From: Podarcis gaigeae
Lineage: Eukaryota
DNA: 64,000 bases
Strand: one strand, 5' to 3'
Assembly (NCBI GenBank): GCA_964106915.2
Contig: OZ066915.1
Positions 7,285 to 37,070 of the stretch are shown piece after piece. A model generated the notes under the pieces. It was given only the letters and a program-made list of their open reading frames with translations, had not been told where the DNA came from and did no database searches. How positions within the stretch are numbered: position 1 is the first letter of the stretch; each line of letters starts with the position of its first letter. The position numbers and the translations under genes were made by a program.

Positions 7285-17916
<10,632 letters not shown>

Positions 17917-18597
17917 AGATGCTGCCATTGGGACCAGCAAAGAAATGGACTTTGCTGCTTTGGAAGGGCAGCTCTGCTCAAATCCCGCTCTAGCATACTG
18001 TTGCCAGCTGGAGTGGGAAAAAGACATCACAGTGGACTTTGTGCATTTGGGAAGCCTAGTGCTTCTTTGTCACTGTGGCAGTTGCTGATCCTGCCGTGGG
18101 ATGGAATGGGAGATGCATATAACAGGATGACTCGTGCTTGTTTGGTGCAGGAGTTTGGTTTGGGCACTGCAGGATGGGAATAGATAGGAGGCGTGTCCTC
18201 TCTGTTTTAAGCAGGCTCGACACTTTTTTGCTTGAAAGCAGCAGGGCAGTGATGCAATAGGCCATTGCGTCAGTAACTACGGTTAGGCTGTGTTGGGCAA
18301 GCGCTGTTGTGCTTGGCAAGTCCTGTGCTGCTCCATTCCCCAGCTCCGGTAGTGGTTTCCGAGACATTCTGCGCCCCCTCTCAGAGAGGGACGTTCAGCC
18401 TTCTCTGTGTGACCCCACCTGTCTGTCCCCAGCCCCATCATGTGCCTCTGGCTGGCCCACTCTGCAGTTGCCCTGCAGCTGCCGGAAGAGAAAGCTGTTA
18501 ACCCACCAACGCTCATCAAGGCAGAAGTCCCCTGGGAGAGCCTGTGTCTCCTGGGACGGCTCTGCCTGTTGCAGCTCCCTATGTGCATGTAGGCCCC

Positions 18598-18653
18598 AAA
18601 GAGGAAGTTAGCAGGCAGAGGAAGTTGCCAGCGCTATCGTACATACTGACTCA
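18598..18653 (+). promoter_or_regulatory. Candidate DOK3 promoter: two PU.1/ETS sites plus AP-1
   Basis: AAAGAGGAAGTT at 18598-18609, CAGAGGAAGTT at 18616-18626 and TGACTCA at 18647-18653, 80-135 nt upstream of the DOK3 ATG. DOK3 is a B-cell/myeloid gene. Confidence 0.6.
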
Positions 18654-18733
18654 TCCCTGTGGCAGCCACAACGGCTTGTGGAGCCTGCAGACTGCCTCGC
18701 TCCTCACTGGGCTGCCCCTTCGGAGCCTGCCCC

Positions 18734-18790
18734 ATGGAGTGTCCCGTGAAAGATGGGATCCTATATATCCAGCACCCCAAATTTGGGAAG
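18734..18790 (+). CDS. DOK3: DOK3 coding exon 1
   Basis: MECPVKDGILYIQHPKFGK with donor AAG|GTAAAT. Matches the DOK3 N-terminus (human, from memory, TPIKDGILYQQHVKFGK) and joins in frame to 22155. Confidence 0.92.
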
Positions 18791-19402
18791 GTAAATGCGT
18801 GTGTGTGTCTGATTTGGTGGGTGGAGTGTCTGGCCCCAGAGAGCCTTTGCTGTATGGGTGGGTAGGTTCAGTGGGAATTTTGGGTCTCGTCAAATGCAGG
18901 GGAGCATTTTTCCTAGCTTTTCCTTCTTTAGGGCCTGAGATTACACCCTCTAGTGCAAGAGCGTGCCTGCAGGAGCTGTCATTGCTTGGCGTCTTTCCCA
19001 CCTTCTGCTTTCTCATGTTACTGTATTGTGAATTTACAGCCAAACTGAATGTAAATAAACTCAATAACAAATTAAAATGCTATATGAAATAAGGGGTGTA
19101 CCTGAAGCAAGGTGTGTGGGAGAGAGAGGCAGGGAGAGACACACAGAGAGAGCACATAAAATAAGTAGAATTGGCCTGAAACCGCCACTGAGCGTGAGTG
19201 TGCAGGGGTGGTCCTATGGGGTTCTGCCTTTTAAAAGTGGGGCCCCCAGTGCCTGGTTTTTCTCTTGCTGCAGGAGGTTTCTAGAGAACTGGGCGCTTGT
19301 ACTTTGGCCCATTTATAGTTTGTTGTCAAGGGACTTGCTTGACCAAGGCAGCCATGTTACTGTGTCCTATCTCTTGGGGTTGGGGATTGACCTGGATCTA
19401 TT

Positions 19403-19461
<59 letters not shown>

Positions 19462-22400
19462 GATCAAGTATCATGTTGCAGGTGTTAGTGAACTCAGCTG
19501 AAGCCTCAAGCTCCCCTATGGTGGAATTGGCTGTGGTGCCAGAGCCCCCTCGGTGCCTGCCCATGTGCAGCGGATATGGCAAGGTGGCTGAAAAGAAATG
19601 GCTCAGTGGTTCTCTCATTTTCGGTCACCTGCCTTTTTAACGTCCAGGGCTAGCAAATGACACCACCCACACCGAAAGGCAGTCACAATTAGATATTTTT
19701 GCATTCCTTGGAGGTGTTCAAAAAGTATTTCTTAACATTTCCTCTGTAAGTAGGTCAATATTCTCCCCACACTCCCCCCCCCCCCAATAACTCCTGAGGC
19801 CACACAACAAGCTAAGGTTTGAAATGAGGCCTTTTTGACTCTCGGCTTATGCTCTTAATCACTCTTCTACATCCATCGCACATTGTTAGGAAACCTGGAT
19901 CGCAAAAGTGGCTATATTGTTTTGTGACAAATGGCTACTAGCAAAGCGAGACTGAAAATGTCTGCAGCTGATATATGCTAAGGTCTAAAGGGTTCAGGCA
20001 GTATTGCTGACCTGCTATCTTGTTCTTATTACTCAGCAAACTTGACTTTACGGAAGTAGCCATAGTTACTCCCCATGGGCACTGGGAAGGTATCCTCTTC
20101 CCCCTGTCTAAAATGAACACTGTAGGGTAGAGGGAAGAGAGAATCAGCCCTGTGGGTGTCTTCCATATTTGGTGCTGACATCCTTCTTAGTCCTCCTTGT
20201 CACAAGAGTAGATTGTGAGATAGAGCTTCGCCCGCTGATAATACCAGGCCTGCCTTGTATTCTTCTGGCAAGTAAGACTCTGTACTAACCAACCACTTTA
20301 AATAACAAACAAACCCAACCTACCACCATCCAAAGCCTGCAATGTCATCACCAGAGGCACATAAACTCTGGCTGAGCTTGGGAGCCGAGCCAACCATTGT
20401 TTCTAGCCACTGCTAGATTGACTTTCTTACTACTTGCTCCAAAGAGACAAAGTGTACCTGCCACCCAGTAAGGGGGGTTAACAGAGGAGTGCTGTGCATG
20501 TGTGCATCCATGCTTGGCTGCTTGCAATAACACCTCCAATCGGGTGCTAGGACGCACATCTTTTAAAAAAAGATGTTTTGGCACATCTCCACTGCTTAGA
20601 TTTATTTATTTCTTGTTAGATAAATAAGTGGAGTTTTTTTTCTCATGGGCCAGCCAGGTTGACATATCTGTTCTCCAGCAGCAACTTGGTGGCTACATAG
20701 GTAGACCTCAAGCTGGCATGCCATTTGTGCACTGGGAAGATTTGTGCTTCCACTTGTCCTGCTGTAGAATCCCAATCGTGAAAGAAATTGGACTGTTTTG
20801 AAAAGGAAGAGAAAGGGGTGTGGGGAAGGCGGAGTCTGGCGTTAGGTGAGCTGGAAGAGAAAAGGGCCACTATACCAACTGTGACTGATTCGACAGCTAC
20901 GGCTGTTCCTGGACTGGGAATGCCTTGCCACAGTGGTTCATGCGCTAGTTACTTCTAGACTGGATTCTGCTCTGTGTGGGGCTTCCCTCGCGTTTGATCC
21001 AGAAGCTGCAGCACCATATAACACCTGTGCTCAGAGATCTGCTGTGGTTGCCGATTTGATGCTGGGCCAGGTTCAAAGTGTTACTGTTTACCTACAAGGT
21101 CACCTTACCCCACACGTGCCCACGTGACCGCTTTAAATGGCAGAATTGGCAGGTGCCACATAATGCCTGTTCCACATTTGTAAGAATTTGATCATTTCAG
21201 GTGGGAGCGCCTACACTTTAGATCGCCCTGCCGCCTTCACTGCCCTTTTCAGTATCTGTTAAAAACATTGATTAGACAAGCCTGCCCAGATGCTTAGAAA
21301 GTGGACATCAATTGTTTTAACATTTTCACTTCTTTATGTTTTAAAGTAGGATTGTGAATTTTCCCGATTTTACTCTTTTATCTTTTGTAAACTCCTTTGA
21401 GGGTGTTGTTGTTTTTACAATCAAAGCAGTGTATACATTTTAGGAAATAATATAAAATTAAATATTATAGACCACAGCCCTGAAACCACTACTGGCTGTC
21501 AGCTTTACACATGTCTTTTGGGCTTCTGAGGCTTCCGCCAGACACTTCACACACATTTCCAGGCTTTCTTTTATTTCCATGAGGTTTAGAAACTTGCTTT
21601 TTTTTTAAAAAAAAAGTATGATTTCAGCAGCTGGCTGCAGGAGGAGGAGATGCTAAATTCCTGCACAGTAAGCCCACAACCTACACACATTTAACTTGTA
21701 TGCGTTCAGCTTTACGCACTTGGCAAAAATAAATAAAAATGGTTGGGGCACCCAGGGAAAAATGACTTTGGCAGTCTCACCTCCCATTGTACCAATGTGT
21801 TTTGACTATACACAACTTTGGCTTTCGGCACAATCCCCTGTGTAAATTGAGGGCTTACGGTATTTACACAGCAATCCCACTAATGCTTGCAGTGCATGCA
21901 GATTTGTGGCTCTATGCATTCAATTGCCTAAGAGAGGTAATCGCCAAAGAATTCTTCGTAACCTCTGATTCCGTATACTGTACTTCCACCTGCTCTTGGC
22001 AAGGACTCTACAGGGCAATAAATCCCCAAAGAGGATCACATTTCTGCTTGGGTAACGCGCTTGTTAAAGAGGCCTTTTCCTCTTCGTGTGGATTTCCTAG
22101 TGCAGACTGATTGTCCCTGATTGTGTGCTGTCACCCCTTGCCCCCTGCTCACAGAAGGTCTGGCGGAAAGTGTGGGCCCAGCTCTTTGCCGACAGCCCTT
22201 CTGGCATCGCACGGCTCGAGTACTTCGAAGGGCGTGAAGGGGCCGCTGCAGAGAAGGCCACCCTGAGGAAGGGCGAGCGGAAGGTCATCCGCCTCTCAGA
22301 CTGCGTCTCGGTGGAGCGGGCAGGCGAGCACAGCTCTCCCAAGGACACCACAGCCTTCTTCCTGAGCATGATGGAGCGCAACTGCTTGCTGGCAGCGGAT

Positions 22401-25400
22401 CAAGCAGATGAGTGGATCGAATGTATCTGCCAGCTGGCTTTTCAGGTATTGACCTCTTCATATCTACAATGGGAAGGCCCTGTGTCTCGCTGAACCACGG
22501 GGAGATTCCTCCTGGCCACAAGTCAGATGAGTGGAATCTGCTTCCTCTAGAGGTGGCTTGCAGTTGCAAGTTTCTGGCCCTCAGTGAGGGTTGGACTTTA
22601 TGACCTCCCAAGTCCTTTTTGACCTGCATTCCATTGACTGAAGAGGTCCTAAATTTGACTGCTATGGTGGCCGATGTTCCCTGCCCAGTTGCTTTAATGA
22701 TAAGTGCTTTTAATTGTGTATTTTTTTTTTGGTTAGGTTCTGAATACAAGGGTTTATATATTCTTGCAAAAAAAAAATCTTTAGGTTTATTCTGGGAATG
22801 TAGATGGGGATGAAGCTCTGGAAATTCTGGGCATGGTCTCTGGGTCTGAAATCTCCCTTGACGTGATGTATTGCAGCCTATTCTCAACCCATGTTATTCA
22901 GAACATTGTCTCGGTGATTTTAATGGGGCATACATTCAAGAAAGAATGCATAAGAATTTAACCTTCTAGGACACTCCTATCTATATTTACTTGAATATAC
23001 AGTGTTCAGTGAGGCTCACTCCCACATAGGTATACACAGAATTGCTGCCTTAATGTGCAAATAATTTGCGCAATCTCTGTTTTTCAATAAATTCTTGGTC
23101 ATTCCTGTTTGTTGCCACTTTAAAAGAAGAAAATAGCAGCCTAGTTTTCAAGGATGTTAGATGAGGAAGATAATAATTTGTGATGTTCTTTATGCAGGCA
23201 GAATGCTCTGTTAATGACGGTGGGGCTTTAGTAATGGTGAAACTGAGACTGAAGGAGAAAAAGAATGGCTCATGGGGAAATAGTATTTATGCAGAGCTGG
23301 CAACTAAGCTCTTTGCAAAGTGAACAGATCCTTGGTGAGACACAAGGAGAAGAAAAAGGGAAAGTATTAGAGTTGAATGGGAGGATCCATGTTTTTAGTT
23401 GCTCATAAGAACAGTAAGGTGTGGAACAGCTAAAGGGATGTTTCTGGCCCGTAAGAATGGACCAAGGGTTGATGGGCACATGGTTGAAATTGTCTTTGTG
23501 TTCAGGTTGAGGTTCAAAGGGAATAATCCAAATGTTGGAACAAGTCACCCTGCCTTTCTCTGTTTCTGTGAGGGTTTTCATCTGAGAAATGCTCTCCTTG
23601 CTTCATTTCCCCTTTGCTGTGCTGCACACAGAGGATGCCTGCCCCCTCGTCCGGCTCAGTTGGAAACACACCCAGCCCACAGCCCCTCATGGAGGAGAAC
23701 ACCATCTACTCATCCTGGCAAGAAAGTATGTGCCTAAGGGGCAGGGTGGGGGGTGAAGGACCTGGAACAAAACACCAGTTTCTTGTACTACCAAGTGGCA
23801 GCTGATGGAAGGAGAGGCCTTCTGGGGAATTCAGGCTTGTAAGGAGCTTTGGTGCAGCTGCAGGTGCTATAAGGTGGTGGCAGTGGGGAACATGCAACCC
23901 TCTTCTTGCTCCCAACTCCCATCAACCCCATTCAGCATGGAGGACCACAGATTTCCCATCTCTGCTGCACAGGCCCCAGTCCTCTGCTCAAAGTTGACCT
24001 ACAGCCTTTCTCAAACCTGGGTTCCTGATGACTCCCATCATCCCTAGCTACCAGGAAAAGTGGTCAGGGGTGATGGGAGTTGTAGTCCAACAACATCCGG
24101 GAACCCAAGTTTGAGAAAGGCTAGGACATTTGTGAAAACCCAAACAGCCAACCCCCATGCTGGCAAAAATGGGATAAGGTAAATTGGAGGTGAGGAACCT
24201 ATTTCAGCCTGAAGGCCAGATTTGAACTTAATCAACTATCCGGAGGCCGTATTCCAATGGTGGGTGGGGGCAAAAGTGGATGGAGCAAAACAACACAAGA
24301 AAAATTCCTCTGTTAGCACCTCCCCCTGCCCACCTCCACCTTGTCACCTGACATGCAGGCAAACAGCACCCACACATGCATGCATGCATGCGGTCACATA
24401 TACATGCACTTTCACACATCAGACATACTGGCACACAGGCATGTGTTTACATGCACACACACAGTGCTCTCTACCTCAGCACTAGGGTGGCTGGAAAGAT
24501 CCATCTGCCTGCTCTTTAGATAGGATCTCTCAATCTTGACCTTAGCTCCTTAGCGCTAGGATGGGAGAATGAGAGTATAAGGCTGCATTTCTTCCCACCC
24601 ACCCCCTCCAGCACGGCAGGTGGAAACGCTGCCTTTTGCTCTTATCTCTCATCTAAGTGCAGTGGTGTTCAGCACTAACACTGGAGATAAAGAGATCCCT
24701 CTGCCTGCTCTTCAAGCGCTTGTCACCAATCTATTCAGTTCATCTATTTTATTTAACAAACTCTATATACCCCTAAGTGACTTACAAAACAAAATGATTA
24801 GATTCTGATCCTTAGAACGCGATAGATGTGCTGATTGAGCCAGTAGTCACGCTAAACTGACTAATAGTAAAAGCCATAAAATGATGAAACAAGCCATAAA
24901 ATGACGTGAGATGAACGGGAAATGAGAAGGGCTTGTTGGGACAGGCCTGGTGGGGCAGAATAGACCCACAAGCTGAAGGTTCTCCACTATAGAGCTGAAT
25001 CATTGAAAACGTGCCTCCCTTTACTGGTAACCCCCCCCCACAAAAAAAATCTGCAGTCTGAGGTACAGCTGCCAAACCCCACCCGGAAAGTGAATCCATA
25101 GCTGAACTGAAAAGATTTGAAACCAGGGATCTAAAGTTCAACACTCTAATTACGAGTCTCCCAGCTCTTTTGAGCTGACAGCTTTACCCCACTGTTCTTC
25201 AANNNNNNNNNNNNNNNNNNNNNNNNNNNNNNNNNNNNNNNNNNNNNNNNNNNNNNNNNNNNNNNNNNNNNNNNNNNNNNNNNNNNNNNNNNNNNNNNNN
25301 NNNNNNNNNNNNNNNNNNNNNNNNNNNNNNNNNNNNNNNNNNNNNNNNNNNNNNNNNNNNNNNNNNNNNNATGATTTTGGCATTAGAAACAAAGGACCCT

Positions 25401-28400
25401 CTAAAACAGGGACAATTAGAGGCAAAGTGTTATTGAGAAGAAGAGTAAAACAAACAGCTTTGTGTGCTCCTATTATTAGATAGAAGTTTCTCCTTAGCTG
25501 TTCCCACACTGTTCTGTGCCCCAGTGACTCTATATTTACTGAGGCAGATGGGCAAGCTAAAAAAGGAGTCTCATTTTGGAAGGATGTAAATTCACAAGCA
25601 CTAGTGGAAATTCTGATGGAATGGGGGAATAAAGTACATGCTCCAACCATTGTATACTCCACAAGGCAGTTAGGATAGCATGGGAGGAGGAAGGGAAGGG
25701 AAGCAGTCCCAAAAATGTCTTCAACCATAAAAAAATATATATGAGTCAGGACTCTTTAGATAGAAGCACAACAAAAACATGGGTTCCTCTTCAGATTTCT
25801 GAATCCCTTTCCCACCAGAGTTACACTTGCTCCTCCCCTATCAGTTTGCTCCTCCCCCTTGAGCAGAATACAGTTTTCAAAATAAGCTAACACATGTGCC
25901 CAGCTACTTTATCTTATTTTTGCAACCTCCACTCATTTTGTGCAGTTTTGGTTGCAGTCATACCTTGGTGGTTGAACGGAATCCATTCCGGAAGTCCATT
26001 CAACTTCCAAAATGTTCGGGAATGAAGCCATGGCTTTCGATTGGCTGCAGGAAGCTCCTGCAGCCAATCAGAAGCCGTGGAACCCGTTGGACATTTGGGT
26101 TCCAAAAAACATTTGCAAACATGAACACTCACTTCCGGGTTTGCGGCGTTCGGGAGCCAAAACGTTCGACTCGCAAGGGGGTTCAACTTCCAAGGTATGA
26201 ATGTACTTTGGTGGTGTGCAGTTTTGATAAGTTTTTGTTTGCTTATTTTTTTAAAAAGTGCGCTCACAGAGTGTAGTCAGAGCCATGGCGGGGTTGGGAG
26301 GAATTAAAACTAAGAACGCGCATGGCTTTTGAGGGATTTGTTGACTTTTTGCAATGCCTTCTCAACAGCCTGCGAGTTCCCCGTGTCAGTTTTCCCGACA
26401 GAGGCATCTGCAAGATGTCACTTGAAAGGGAACTACCTGATGACGACTTTACCTGAGCACCTGGTGCTGAAGGACATGCACTCCGGGCAAGCCCTCTATA
26501 CCTGGCCTTATGCCTTCCTCCGAAGATTTGGCCAGGAAAAGGTATGTTGTGTCTGTTTCCTCCTCCAGTGGCCCAGAAAACACCCGTCCTCTACTGACTA
26601 CCCTTAGGAATAGCATCAAAGGCAGGGAACATCCTGTCTTGTCCTGCAGCTTGAGGACAGGGAGTACCCTCATTCCCAGTGGGCTGTGTTAGCAGGCCCT
26701 GGTCACACCTTCAGCCCACAGGATGATTTCAAAATAAGCGGACCTGGGAAGCGGGTGGTGCTGTGGGTTAAACCACAGAGCCTAGGACTTGCCAATCAGA
26801 AGTTCGGCGGTTCAAATCCCCGAGACGGGGTGAGCTCCCATTGCTTGGTCCCTGCTCCTGCCAACCTAGCAGTTCGAAAGCACGTCAAAGTGCAAGTAGA
26901 TAAATAGGTACCGCTCTGGCGGGAAGGTGAGCGGCGTTTCCGTGCGCTGCTCTGCTTCGCCAGAAGCGGCTTAGTCCTGCTGGCCACATGACCCAGAAGC
27001 TGTACGCCGGCTCTCTCGGCCAATAAAGCGAGATGAACACCACAATCCCAGAGTCGGTCACAACTGGACCTAATGGTCAGGGGTCCCTTTACCTTTACAG
27101 GGATAGCAGATAAGTCTACCTCACACTTCAGGTGATGCTTCTTGTAGTGTGTTGCTGCTGTTCTGGGAATAGTAGTATCTTTAGTAAATTCACACCCACC
27201 CCTTTCTGCCTTGGTGCATTGGGCTAGGAGTTGAAATACTCCCCTCCCATTATTTCACCATTCACTTGAACACGTAAAAAAATTGTCCACCCACTCTTCT
27301 GATATGATAATCCTGGAGGCTGGTATATTTCCTCCTGCTGCCCCACCCACCTTCTTAGTTTGCTGCCTGCTCCTGGGACTTTTTAAACCCATCCAGATTA
27401 GACTCAGTTAGAGCTATTTCATATGCAGGGACCATAGATCAGCTGCTGAAAGCGTGCTGCGCATCCCTTGCATGCCGAAGTCACCAGATTCTATCCCTGG
27501 CATCTCCAGTTAAAAGAAATAGGTAGAAGATGATGGGGAAGAGTCTCTGCCTGAGAGCTGTGGCAAGCTAAACTGGGCAATCCTGGGCTAGATGGAGGAA
27601 ATATAGTCCAAACAGATGGACCTCTTGCTGCTGGATGCCAAAGACAAGATGACAGCCTTTGATTCCATGCACAGAAGCTACCTGGCCTGACAGCCGAGTC
27701 TTAGCATTGGCAATGGCACAGCACCCTCTACCACTCCTGGGGGCAGCAGGCTATCCTGGCAGGAGGGAGTGCAGCGCAGCCTAGCTTAAGGGACTTGGAA
27801 GAATGATGGTGGACTGCTGCCCTGCCCCCAGTGGTGAATGGTGCCCCTTTGTGACTGGTCAGGAGGAAGGCAGAGAGACCAACAGCAGGTGGCGCCGGAG
27901 CCATGACAGGCAGAGCCACCTGTGACAAGTTGTAAGTAAGGAGACAGTTTGGGGTTGGCTGAGGGCAGGCTGAGTTTGGTGGGACAGGGCTCCCTTTGCC
28001 CTGAATGGACCAGCCTGGGTTGCCTGCCCTAATGGTAGGGCTGCCCTTGAGTCTGGCCCAATATAAGGCCTCTTCCAGGTAAATCTCTGCAATGTCCAGC
28101 TAAAAGGATTTTGGGTGGCATAGCAAGAGGAAATGTCTGGCTGAGATGCTGAAGAGCCACTGCCCATCATAATCCTGGGCTAAAAGGTCCCATTGACTTA
28201 AATCAGCAACATCTATCGAGTCTGTTTTTCCTGGATCTGTCTCCATTGAGGTTCAGCATCAGCAGACAACTATGGGCTGATCCACATCATACATGAAAAG
28301 CGCATCCAGTGTGTGTTCAAAGCGCATGGCTTTCCCCAAAAAGGAACCCTGGGAAACGGTAGTTGGTTGAGGCTGCTGGGCACTGTAGAACTACAGTTCC

Positions 28401-29387
28401 CAGGGTTCTTTGGAGTTCCTTAAATGTTTGTTGGGTGTGCTTTAAATGTTTGGTGCTGCTTTGCCTTAGATGCTGCAGGGGAAACTTGAGCAGAGATATC
28501 AATGATGGCCAAGTATGAGAATCACCTTAAGAAAGCACCTTTGTGTTCCCCCACTCTCTCCCCAGACGGTGTTCTCCTTTGAGGCCGGGCGCCGCTGTGA
28601 CTCCGGAGAGGGCCTCTTTATCTTTAACACCACACGGGCTGTGGAGATCTGCCGAGCTGTCTCGGCCTCCATAGACCGCCAGAAAGCCACTCTTCTGGAG
28701 AGAGACAAGAAAGCCGGCATCTCCCCACCCCAGGACTGTGTGCAGAAAGCAGGGGGCTGGTCCTGGCCCACCAGCCCGGAGAGCCCGGAGGGAGTGCAGC
28801 CGCTGTACGAAAGAACGCCAAAGGGAAGTGTGGACATGGGGTACTCGGCAGCGCCTCCTGGCGGCAGCCGCTCCATCTCCCCAGAGTTCAAGGCTTCCGA
28901 CTCGCCCATCATCTACGCTTCCATTGGCAAGAGCTTCCCTCTCCCGTTCCAGCCCTCGGGCAAGGCAGAGGCAGAACCCAAAGCGGGAAGTGAGCAGGGC
29001 TCGGACCACCTCTATGAGAATCTGCGCAGTCTGGAGCAGCAGGCCCTCTGCGCGGAGCCTCTGAGCCTCGGCTACAGAGACTCCCCTGAGGGCAGCGGCA
29101 GCAACGGGGGGTCGCCCATCTATGACAACAGCCCTGTCGTGGCAAGGCGCTCCAACAGTAACCCTGGCTTCAATCCCAGTGCTGTGGGGGCTGACCCTGC
29201 CCCAGACAGCCAGTGTCCCCCTCCCTTGCTGGATTGCCAGGGGCCTGAAAGCGGAGGTGAGGGCCGGGCCAGGGCCAAGGCCAGAGGGGCTGGGGCCTTC
29301 AAGCACAAGCTGGTCACTATGTTGAGCCGGGATGGAGGAGCCAGCAAAGCAGCCGGCAAGAACGCAGGCTCAATGGACAAAGCATGA
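18734..29387 (+). CDS. DOK3: Docking protein 3 (PH-PTB adaptor), 5 coding exons, 478 aa
   Basis: join(18734..18790,22155..22445,23632..23725,26369..26541,28566..29387) = 1437 nt, intron phases 0,0,1,0 consistent. PH domain (KDGILYIQHPKFGK/KVWRKVWAQL...EWIECICQLAF), MEENTIYSSW linker, PTB domain (WPYAFLRRFG, FSFEAGRRCDSGEGLF), tail tyrosine motifs IYASI, HLYENL and PIYDN, and FKHKLVTMLSR. Confidence 0.95.
19054..19076 (+). terminator. Predicted DDX41 poly(A) signals, lying within DOK3 intron 1
   Basis: AATAAA at 19054-19059 and ATTAAA at 19071-19076, with upstream TGTA elements. These are the first canonical signals after the DDX41 stop. Confidence 0.7.
19401..19460. repeat. (TTTC)15 microsatellite
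   Basis: Read directly from the sequence. Confidence 0.95.
20910..21460 (+). mobile_element. Degraded L2-type LINE 3' fragment
   Basis: Encodes VVHALVTSRLD, typical of the L2 ORF2 C-terminus, then decays into an AT-rich tail. Confidence 0.65.
22155..22445 (+). CDS. DOK3: DOK3 coding exon 2 (PH domain)
   Basis: KVWRKVWAQLFADSPSGIARLE...ICQLAFQ, 291 nt. Confidence 0.95.
23632..23725 (+). CDS. DOK3: DOK3 coding exon 3
   Basis: RMPAPSSG...MEENTIYSSWQE, 94 nt, donor A|GTATGT. Confidence 0.9.
25203..25370. other. Assembly gap
   Basis: Run of N. Confidence 0.99.
25955..26203. mobile_element. Tc1/mariner-pogo type MITE
   Basis: TIRs cagtcataccttgg...ccaaggtatgaatg, TA on the right flank. Confidence 0.7.
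26369..26541 (+). CDS. DOK3: DOK3 coding exon 4 (PTB domain)
   Basis: CEFPVSVFPTEASARCHL...WPYAFLRRFGQEK, 173 nt. Confidence 0.95.
26746..27098 (+). mobile_element. Sauria SINE, full length
   Basis: tRNA-derived head with B box ggttcaaatccc, body gcagttcgaaagcacgtcaaagtgcaagtagataaatagg, and (ACCTTT) tail. Three more copies occur in the window. Confidence 0.9.
28566..29387 (+). CDS. DOK3: DOK3 last coding exon
   Basis: TVFSFEAGRRCDSGEG...GSMDKA*, 822 nt. Confidence 0.95.
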   Translation, partial: TVFSFEAGRRCDSGEGLFIFNTTRAVEICRAVSASIDRQKATLLERDKKAGISPPQDCVQKAGGWSWPTSPESPEGVQPLYERTPKGSVDMGYSAAPPGGSRSISPEFKASDSPIIYASIGKSFPLPFQPSGKAEAEPKAGSEQGSDHLYENLRSLEQQALCAEPLSLGYRDSPEGSGSNGGSPIYDNSPVVARRSNSNPGFNPSAVGADPAPDSQCPPPLLDCQGPESGGEGRARAKARGAGAFKHKLVTMLSRDGGASKAAGKNAGSMDKA

Positions 29388-29684: not shown

Positions 29685-29698
29685 AATAAATAAATAAA
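29685..29698 (+). terminator. DOK3 poly(A) signal
   Basis: Three overlapping AATAAA about 300 nt after the stop codon. Confidence 0.8.
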
Positions 29699-35156: not shown

Positions 35157-35318
35157 TAGTGAGACATTGGCAGTGTCTGTTAATACCTGTGTTGTGTTGC
35201 AGTTGCACAAAACACATTCCTGCATACTGTACCATGGAAAAGTTTGGGCACCCTGCAAAAAAGCATTTCAGATTCCTTCGCCATGTTTTGGACAGGAGCT
35301 TTTCTCTGTTCTTCCCCT

Positions 35319-35526
35319 AAAAGTAAAGGTAAAGGGACACCTGACCATTAGGTCCAGTCGTGACCGACTCTGGGATTGTGGCGCTCATCTCACTTTATTG
35401 GCCGAGGGAGCCGGCGTACTGCTTCCGGGTCGTGTGGCCAGCAAGACTAAGCTGCTTCTGGTGAACCAGAGCAGCGTACGGAAACGCCGTTTACCTTCTC
35501 TCTGGAGGTATTTATCCACTTGCACT
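35319..35526 (-). mobile_element. Sauria SINE, 5' truncated
   Basis: Reverse complement of the 3' part of the copy at 26746-27098. Confidence 0.88.
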
Positions 35527-35713: not shown

Positions 35714-35979
35714 TGCTGGCCCTGCCACTAGCTTTCAAGCAGCTGTGTGAAGCAGCTGCAGTAAAAATAATAACCATGACGATGGTGAAGGTGGGGGCTA
35801 GGAATTCCACAGCATAGGGGCTGCCGCAGGGAATGCCCTCACCCGATTAATAAAGCGCCTCTTCAGTTCCTGAGCATGTGCAGAATGCTGCGAGTGACCC
35901 ACAAGCACCTCCCACCTCACAAGCAACAGCGAGGAGATCTTTCAGAGGCGAAACTAGGATTTCCAGAAGGAAGGACGGG

Positions 35980-37070
35980 GCTGTACCAATCCTATTTGGC
36001 GGGGCTTGGGCGGCAGCTGCGCAAGGAGACGCCGCCCTCCTGGGCGCAACATCCGCGGAGGGCGCGGCGATTTCGGCGCCGCGCTCCGCCCTTTCTCCTC
36101 CAGCCAGGGGACGCGGGCGCCGCACACCTCCAATAGGGGGCGCTCTTAAGCCGAGCAAGCGCCCCCGACGGCGCGCATGCGCTTCTACCTAGCAGGCGGC
36201 GCGCTTGTTGAATGGTGAGGCGGGGGGGACAGCAGTGGGCGGGGCTTGCGCTTGAACTGCTGAGCAGGCGAAGCCCCGCCGGAGAGAGATATATAAGGGC
36301 TCCGTGGGTGCCGGCGGCGCTGCGGCTGAGACGGGGCGGCGGAGGCTGCTCAGTAGCTCCGCCCTTCTCTGAGGAGGTCGCGCGCGGGGAGCTTGCAGGT
36401 ATTGCATCCCGGCCCTTGGTTGGAGTTGGCGGTGGGTGAGGAAAGGGAAAGTGATGTGGCTTTTCTGGGGACTCGTGTGGGCAGAGAAGGGCGTCGGGGT
36501 GACATGAGTGCCTCTTTCCCCACATATCCCCACCCCCTTCTCCATCCCAGTCATGCTTTAGGTCAGATGTGAACGAGAGTTTGTGCCTCTCTTCACTCGC
36601 CCCCCCCCCCTTCGTACTTTCCCTTTCTGTGTTTTCCCACGCGCTTCTCTCTCTCTCCCCGGCTCCCCGTGGCGCAGGAGTGTGTACTTTAGGAAGTCTC
36701 CTGGGTGCCCCCCCCCTGTTCTTTTTTCCATAGGGACGTCCTCTTGCCGTGGGGCTGGGGCGTGCCCCCTAGCCGTGCGTTAGCGGTGTCTCAGCGAGAC
36801 TAGCGTGTTGCTCATGGCACCAGGATGTAACCGTCACCCTCGGTTTCCTGCGGCGGCTCGGAGCAGGGACGTCCCGTTTCGTGGGTGTGATGGCTGGTAG
36901 GGATCCCCTCTTGAGCCGAGGGAAGGGGCTGGTGCTGGAGGCTCCCGTCGCAGGAGTGAGTCTCTCCCGGGGCTCCTCGCCGTCAAGGGTCTGAACCTGG
37001 GCATGCATGCGCCGGCACACGTCCCTCCTGGCTCCCCGCTCTTCTTCTGGACGTCTATTCTCGTCGTTCA
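35980..37070 (+). promoter_or_regulatory. PDLIM7: PDLIM7 CpG-island promoter and non-coding first exon
   Basis: CpG island with CCAAT at 35986 and 36130, GC boxes, NRF1 site CGCGCATGCGC at 36172 and TATATAAG at 36290-36297. Candidate exon-1 donors are CAG|GTATTG (36398) and TGG|GTGAGG (36435). The first coding exon at 41165 has a splice acceptor, so an upstream exon is required. Confidence 0.75.

Follow-up and report, generated by a model that had tools for sequence, protein, structure and literature searches.

Partial parallel overlaps account for 33 of 749 human pairs, with 5 kept in mouse, in the consulted part of Solda et al. (2008; PMC2330155), which also describes same-strand overlaps as selected against. 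In the accessible portion of Chen et al. (2019; PMC6746723), 578 of 19,220 human genes were placed in tandem overlapping pairs, and in the available text of the FlyBase 'Rule-Benders' paper (PMC4528330), a 3′ UTR lying over the 5′ UTR of the next gene was treated as too ordinary to flag. Further, an inner promoter can shift the polyadenylation of its host gene, as described for Mcts2 within H13 in the part of PMC13309782 consulted here, and U1 protection reaches over about 1 kb according to the excerpt used of PMC3826338.

A literature search, with subscription papers and bioRxiv supplements outside its range, returned no description of an overlap between DDX41 and DOK3, and none is discussed in the accessible parts of 10.64898/2026.04.30.721836, PMC4586440, PMC6327229 and PMC2446394. 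The pair was also sought, by presumed accession numbers, in six supplementary files of PMC2330155, a search that had no positive control, and in one short supplementary file of PMC6746723; neither gave a match, a result that carries no information on a mammalian overlap.

In the 64-kb lizard window, that is, the whole stretch of DNA analysed, DDX41 and DOK3 were found to be two distinct protein-coding genes arranged in tandem on the same (+) strand, head to tail, with 817 nt from the DDX41 stop to the DOK3 ATG. Their parts are as follows.

7447 to 17282, + strand: DDX41 coding exons before the last, 15 matched segments (tblastn with the rodent DDX41 model).
17780 to 17916, + strand: coding part of the last DDX41 exon, with TAG at its end (acceptor and translation; completes the 622-aa length).
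18734 to 18790, + strand: DOK3 first coding exon, 19 codons MECPVKDGILYIQHPKFGK, phase 0 (protein matches).
22155 to 22445, + strand: DOK3 exon 2, PH domain (Pfam PH, E 1.8e-4, under the gathering cut-off; acceptor at 22155).
23632 to 29387, + strand: DOK3 exons 3–5 (23632–23725, 26369–26541 and 28566–29387), PTB domain and tail (domain search, tblastn).
29685 to 29698, + strand: predicted poly(A) signal of DOK3 itself, three overlapping AATAAA (motif scan).

The rodent DDX41 model mapped in 16 segments from 7447 on. Two upstream exons matched residues 435–466 and 542–577 of the 622 residues of human DDX41, and since this match extends up to residue 577, the 45 remaining codons correspond to the last DDX41 exon. 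DOK3 exon 2 was 100% identical to Podarcis lilfordi DOK3, and the five DOK3 exons together gave 478 aa, the same length as the P. lilfordi protein, which identifies the window as DNA of a Podarcis-type lizard. The 57-nt exon 1 was matched by 126 of the 138 DOK3 proteins compared, from squamates to mammals, the other 12 being squamate models or fragments that start in intron 1 or later. Because of these 126 matches and the sum of 478 aa, the exon at 18734 is, judged from the protein comparison, the true DOK3 coding start. The uneven absence of exon 1 among entries (12/43 squamate vs. 0/95 other) was discarded as evidence, as for distant taxa the search lists complete models at the top. Gene order, exon, donor, hexamers and the conserved block upstream of the exon are shown by the analysis, and the DDX41 stop (17916), DOK3 ATG (18734), donor (18791) and acceptor (22155) lay exactly where the initial annotation had placed them.

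Several DOK3 isoform models of snake and gecko (P0033, P0039 and P0041) begin within the last part of intron 1 and read into exon 2 without a change of frame, and the two snake N-termini among them are near-identical; the lizard sequence at 22101–22154 holds a stop and no ATG in that frame. Intron 1 also carries a TTTC microsatellite of about 15 units (~19405–19462). Two stretches of related sequence, at ~26740–27100 and ~35200–35500, resemble what we take to be lizard Sauria-type SINEs, and a GC-rich island (0.65) at ~35800–37000, about 6 kb past DOK3, is likely the promoter of the next gene.

The DDX41 3′ end was then considered from the signals downstream of its stop codon.

17917 to 19090, + strand: predicted DDX41 3′ UTR of about 1.17 kb, its 3′ end estimated from the first canonical hexamers (single copy in the genome).
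17940 to 17945, + strand: variant hexamer AAGAAA in poor context (UGUA absent upstream, little U/GU downstream).
18179 to 18184, + strand: variant hexamer AATAGA, the strongest option should DDX41 end further upstream (downstream T fraction 0.33, UGUA absent upstream).
19022 to 19119, + strand: poly(A) signal cluster, with TGTA at 19022 and 19050, AATAAA at 19054, ATTAAA at 19071, AATAAG at 19088 and a GU-rich stretch at 19094–19119 (motif scan).

The scan bore out the earlier observation that the first AATAAA and ATTAAA on the + strand past the DDX41 stop are those at 19054 and 19071, and added the two variant hexamers at 17940 and 18179, which had not been listed. As to the 1137 nt free of canonical hexamers, 887 of 1000 dinucleotide shuffles also lacked AATAAA and ATTAAA, and so did 479 of 1258 equal-sized windows. 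The gap is not above chance and is useful only as a constraint on the position of the DDX41 end.

The + strand of the window carries 70 canonical hexamers; six of them had at least two UGUA in the 100 nt upstream, three had at least 12 GT/TG downstream, and one, that at 19054, had both, with the qualification that these thresholds were chosen on the 19054 site itself and the ranking flatters it. The second canonical hexamer (19071) follows 17 nt after the first, making this one of seven canonical hexamer pairs spaced 6–25 nt. The parts of a poly(A) site named in the accessible text of PMC11870849, which include upstream UGUA and a downstream GU-rich element, are all present at the 19054 cluster. 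On these features, 19050–19093 looks like a genuine 3′ end. Separately, the cluster folds within a stem (18980–19140) formed by upstream UC-rich and downstream GA-rich tracts; its z score was −2.29 and 1 of 200 shuffles was as stable, a weak value for a region picked by eye.

Upstream of DOK3 exon 1, two elements were located.

18600 to 18625, + strand: pair of AGAGGAAGT motifs (starts 18600 and 18617), predicted DOK3 promoter (motif scan and extension comparison).
18647 to 18653, + strand: TGACTCA within the conserved block (motif scan; weak alone, as the window has seven TGA[CG]TCA on its + strand).

The pair at 18600 and 18617, which we take to be ETS/PU.1-type, comprises the sole two [AG]GAGGAAGT matches on the + strand of the 64-kb window, and the TGACTCA at 18647 is presumably an AP-1-type motif. 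The translated non-coding block of the lizard shared 22 of 25 residues with the N-terminal extension of a gecko DOK3 model, in a frame offset by one base from that of the lizard DOK3 ATG, and the extension of a second gecko DOK3 matched the block piecewise. RRGGAAGT sites were further sought in back-translations of 15 amniote DOK3 models with extensions of at least 25 residues, each with 300 shuffles. A compatible pair with 15–21 nt spacing was found in 9 of the 15 (two geckos, one turtle, two birds and four mammals) vs. 0–4% of shuffles, and a close pair was absent from the other six, the measure being compatibility with the peptide sequence of gene models rather than aligned DNA. At least one compatible site 70–144 nt before the conserved proline was present in all 15 models, single sites being common in shuffles as well (10–48%). 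In the gecko Euleptes, the two compatible sites lie 141 and 124 nt before the PVKDG proline, vs. 142 and 125 nt in the lizard.

These comparisons indicate that an amniote-wide promoter element likely lies directly 5′ of DOK3 exon 1, within the predicted DDX41 UTR. This predicted DOK3 promoter is the firmest addition of the analysis and its main new result. The candidate region is CpG-poor (observed/expected 0.29–0.34). A DOK3 start near 18650, as first annotated, agrees with the ETS-type pair at 18600/18617 and is itself a predicted position. Models of gecko, turtle and bird whose start lies 5′ of the pair were not counted, as they fit ab initio extension in addition to overlapping RNA. A CAG resembling an acceptor of moderate strength has its last base at 18574 (region 18560–18592); the frame after it reads LQLP, resembling the LQLP/LQLS of some mammalian DOK3 extensions, and reaches a TAG before the DOK3 ATG. 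This CAG is possibly the homologue of an upstream-exon acceptor.

Since 19050–19093 resembles a 3′ end and the conserved candidate DOK3 promoter lies upstream of it, we favour the reading in which the DDX41 mRNA would run over the DOK3 start. The initial annotation had proposed this overlap; it stands as the likeliest reading, drawn from signals in the DNA. We put its probability at roughly 0.7, a judgement and not a computed value, the context of the 19054 site having been weighed against the variant hexamers, a short fish UTR and the selection against parallel overlaps.

These same points support the alternative that DDX41 ends early, at AATAGA (18179), AAGAAA (17940) or a site with no hexamer, so that the two genes would be close-packed without overlap and 19054/19071 would be a cryptic intronic signal. 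The four DOK3 introns hold ten canonical hexamers, six of them in intron 1, AATAGA is followed by U-rich sequence, and in human, as we presume, a few hundred bases separate the end of DDX41 from DOK3; all three were counted for an early end. In the sources as far as available, the DDX41 3′ UTR of mandarin fish is 272 bp long (PMC9862065), parallel overlaps are under-represented (PMC2330155), and variant hexamers are used by about 40% of genes (PMC11870849). Against it, neither variant hexamer has a UGUA within 100 nt upstream, and the 19054 cluster ranks first in context among the 70 canonical sites, albeit by a post-hoc score. An early end was considered unlikely.

Data from 24 sequencing runs of four related organisms were also consulted; 18 were guessed to be RNA, none being recorded as such, and 4 of the 18 were examined over 17920–19390. 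Three of the four had no contig on this interval and one (X5) had two low-depth contigs, 19093–19253 and 19280–19390; contigs can be missing from such a view and cannot mark RNA ends, and those carrying the DDX41 coding end were outside view. Word shares of 0.26–0.32 were obtained in 16 guessed-RNA runs, which may contain DNA and were not counted as evidence. If the divergence seen in X5 (7/272) is assumed, these shares are above the 0.20 ceiling for an AAGAAA end and fit either the 19090 end (0.17–0.67) or the top of the AATAGA range (0.08–0.29).

No DDX41 retrocopy that could mark the poly(A) site was found in the lizard's own genome, where each query gave one match, and Rfam gave no match over 17920–22200. 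A search of metagenome contigs for vertebrate comparison DNA with the exon-1 pattern gave 0 matches; seven distant DOK-like loci (39–54%) were present in such contigs, with DDX41 beside none of the seven.

Within the overlap reading, how the shared segment would be handled depends on the first DOK3 donor.

18788 to 18798, + strand: DOK3 first donor AAG/GTAAATGC, A at +5 (7 of 11 matches to the sequence that we take to be the U1 target).

The distance from this donor to the poly(A) signal, earlier given as about 260 nt, is exactly 263 nt (18791 to 19054), so that the signal has a 5′ splice site upstream of it inside the reach of about 1 kb given for U1. The initial annotation had DOK3 pre-mRNA passing the signal under U1 protection. 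This is plausible at such a distance, and it is also routine, because the DOK3 introns hold ten canonical hexamers in all. The further suggestion, that splicing and cleavage compete on the DDX41 RNA, is disfavoured, the donor having A and not G at +5. In reporters, nearly every non-GU mismatch at positions 3–8 of the 10-nt target abolished the inhibition of polyadenylation by U1 (PMC2367729, section 15, as far as accessible). Uninterrupted pairing across positions 3–8 was not found at the DOK3 donor, whose A at +5 is position 8, and since this A mismatches U1, the donor is unlikely by itself to block the 3′-end formation of DDX41.

The mechanism that we propose, and regard as reasonably probable, is that two independent promoters share about 0.4–0.5 kb, with DDX41 ending at 19054–19071 and the donor being read differently in each RNA; the DDX41 3′ end, the DOK3 start and the behaviour of U1 are what we infer here. 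The DDX41 mRNA would end at the 19054–19071 cluster, its 3′ UTR containing the candidate promoter and the first coding exon of DOK3. In PU.1-expressing immune cells, the DOK3 RNA would start near the ETS-type pair, so that only about 150 nt would separate cap and donor and U1 binding there would be aided by the cap-binding complex; exon 1 would then be joined to the acceptor at 22155, with the downstream poly(A) signal masked. In the DDX41 RNA, 1011 nt lie between the last acceptor and the same donor, which is remote from the cap, has a weak +5 position and would be ignored, with cleavage near 19070–19105. A length of 1011 nt is too long for ordinary exon definition. The transcription start site would thereby decide whether donor or poly(A) signal wins. 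Binding of U1 at the first 5′ splice site is indeed raised by the cap-binding complex, according to the available part of PMC2367729.

It is improbable, in our view, that the overlap also couples the two genes, either with the DOK3 promoter, when it fires in myeloid or B cells, hindering DDX41 elongation, which would shift DDX41 to the AATAGA site or lower its output, or with U1 diverting DDX41 RNA into an NMD-bound read-through. The geometry does offer a weak upstream site and a candidate intragenic promoter, and Mcts2 acting on H13 is a precedent (PMC13309782, consulted part); however, the DOK3 donor mismatches U1 at +5, and in the one cancer data set covered by the accessible text of PMC11870849, just 6% of cases showed a change of downstream expression on read-in. 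We hold it quite improbable that the overlap is old and common to reptiles and birds, with a PU.1-fired DOK3 promoter in myeloid and B cells pushing DDX41, a DNA sensor and splicing helicase, to a weak short-UTR signal upstream and so setting the DDX41 output of immune cells.

Read-through from 18790 to 22155 would retain the DDX41 stop and have four junctions downstream of it, and 11 ATGs would precede that of DOK3. A stop codon upstream of splice junctions marks an RNA for NMD, and DDX41 RNA leaking into this splice would likely be an NMD target and not a fusion. Such a read-through would yield no fusion protein, because the DDX41 stop is kept. No in-frame splice joining both ORFs was found, the stop preceding the DOK3 exon, and skipping of the last DDX41 exon joins the penultimate donor, phase 1, to DOK3 exon 2, phase 0, out of frame. 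A functional DDX41–DOK3 fusion protein is thus scarcely credible: besides this frame mismatch, the one fused model of 981 aa in its favour, from the rodent Scotinomys teguina (P0139), came up once among the 7988 long candidates that were scored and is a single 'hypothetical protein' without the DOK3 PH region, and a DEAD domain occurred in 0 of the 23 matches (171–2000 aa) of the protein search that gave P. lilfordi DOK3. P0139 was most likely a merge by a gene finder, confirming only that DDX41 and DOK3 are adjacent.

If confirmed, the overlap would offer a compact natural test, in two immune genes, of how a single splice donor and a single poly(A) signal can be read in opposite ways according to transcription start, and RNA-seq counts and gene models at the reptile DOK3 exon 1 would mix two genes. 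The conserved ETS-type pair provides a usable prediction of the DOK3 promoter across amniotes, whatever the outcome for the overlap.

Compared with the described systems, the DDX41–DOK3 arrangement would resemble the partial parallel overlaps, as the 3′ end of the upstream gene would fall within its same-strand downstream neighbour; it differs in that the DDX41 UTR would hold a coding exon and its donor, and in that the reptile case is predicted from signals. The Drosophila 3′ UTR/5′ UTR overlaps share its orientation and logic, whereas here the overlap would lie in a 1.5-Gb vertebrate genome and extend past a coding exon as far as the intron that follows. Similar to H13/Mcts2, a second promoter would lie inside the first unit with poly(A) candidates on either side, but Mcts2 is nested, imprinted, intronic and driven from a CpG island, while the candidate DOK3 promoter is CpG-poor and would lie in a terminal exon. 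Likewise, in U1 telescripting and composite terminal exons, as exemplified by the IgM heavy chain and the HIV-1 5′ LTR in the accessible part of PMC3826338, a 5′ splice site lies within about 1 kb of a signal that is used by one RNA and ignored by another. There, the choice is made within one gene, and in HIV-1 the donor is downstream of the signal; at DDX41–DOK3, the donor is upstream of the signal and two promoters would decide. The class of overlap is thus a known, uncommon one, and DDX41–DOK3 is likely a new case of it and not a new principle.
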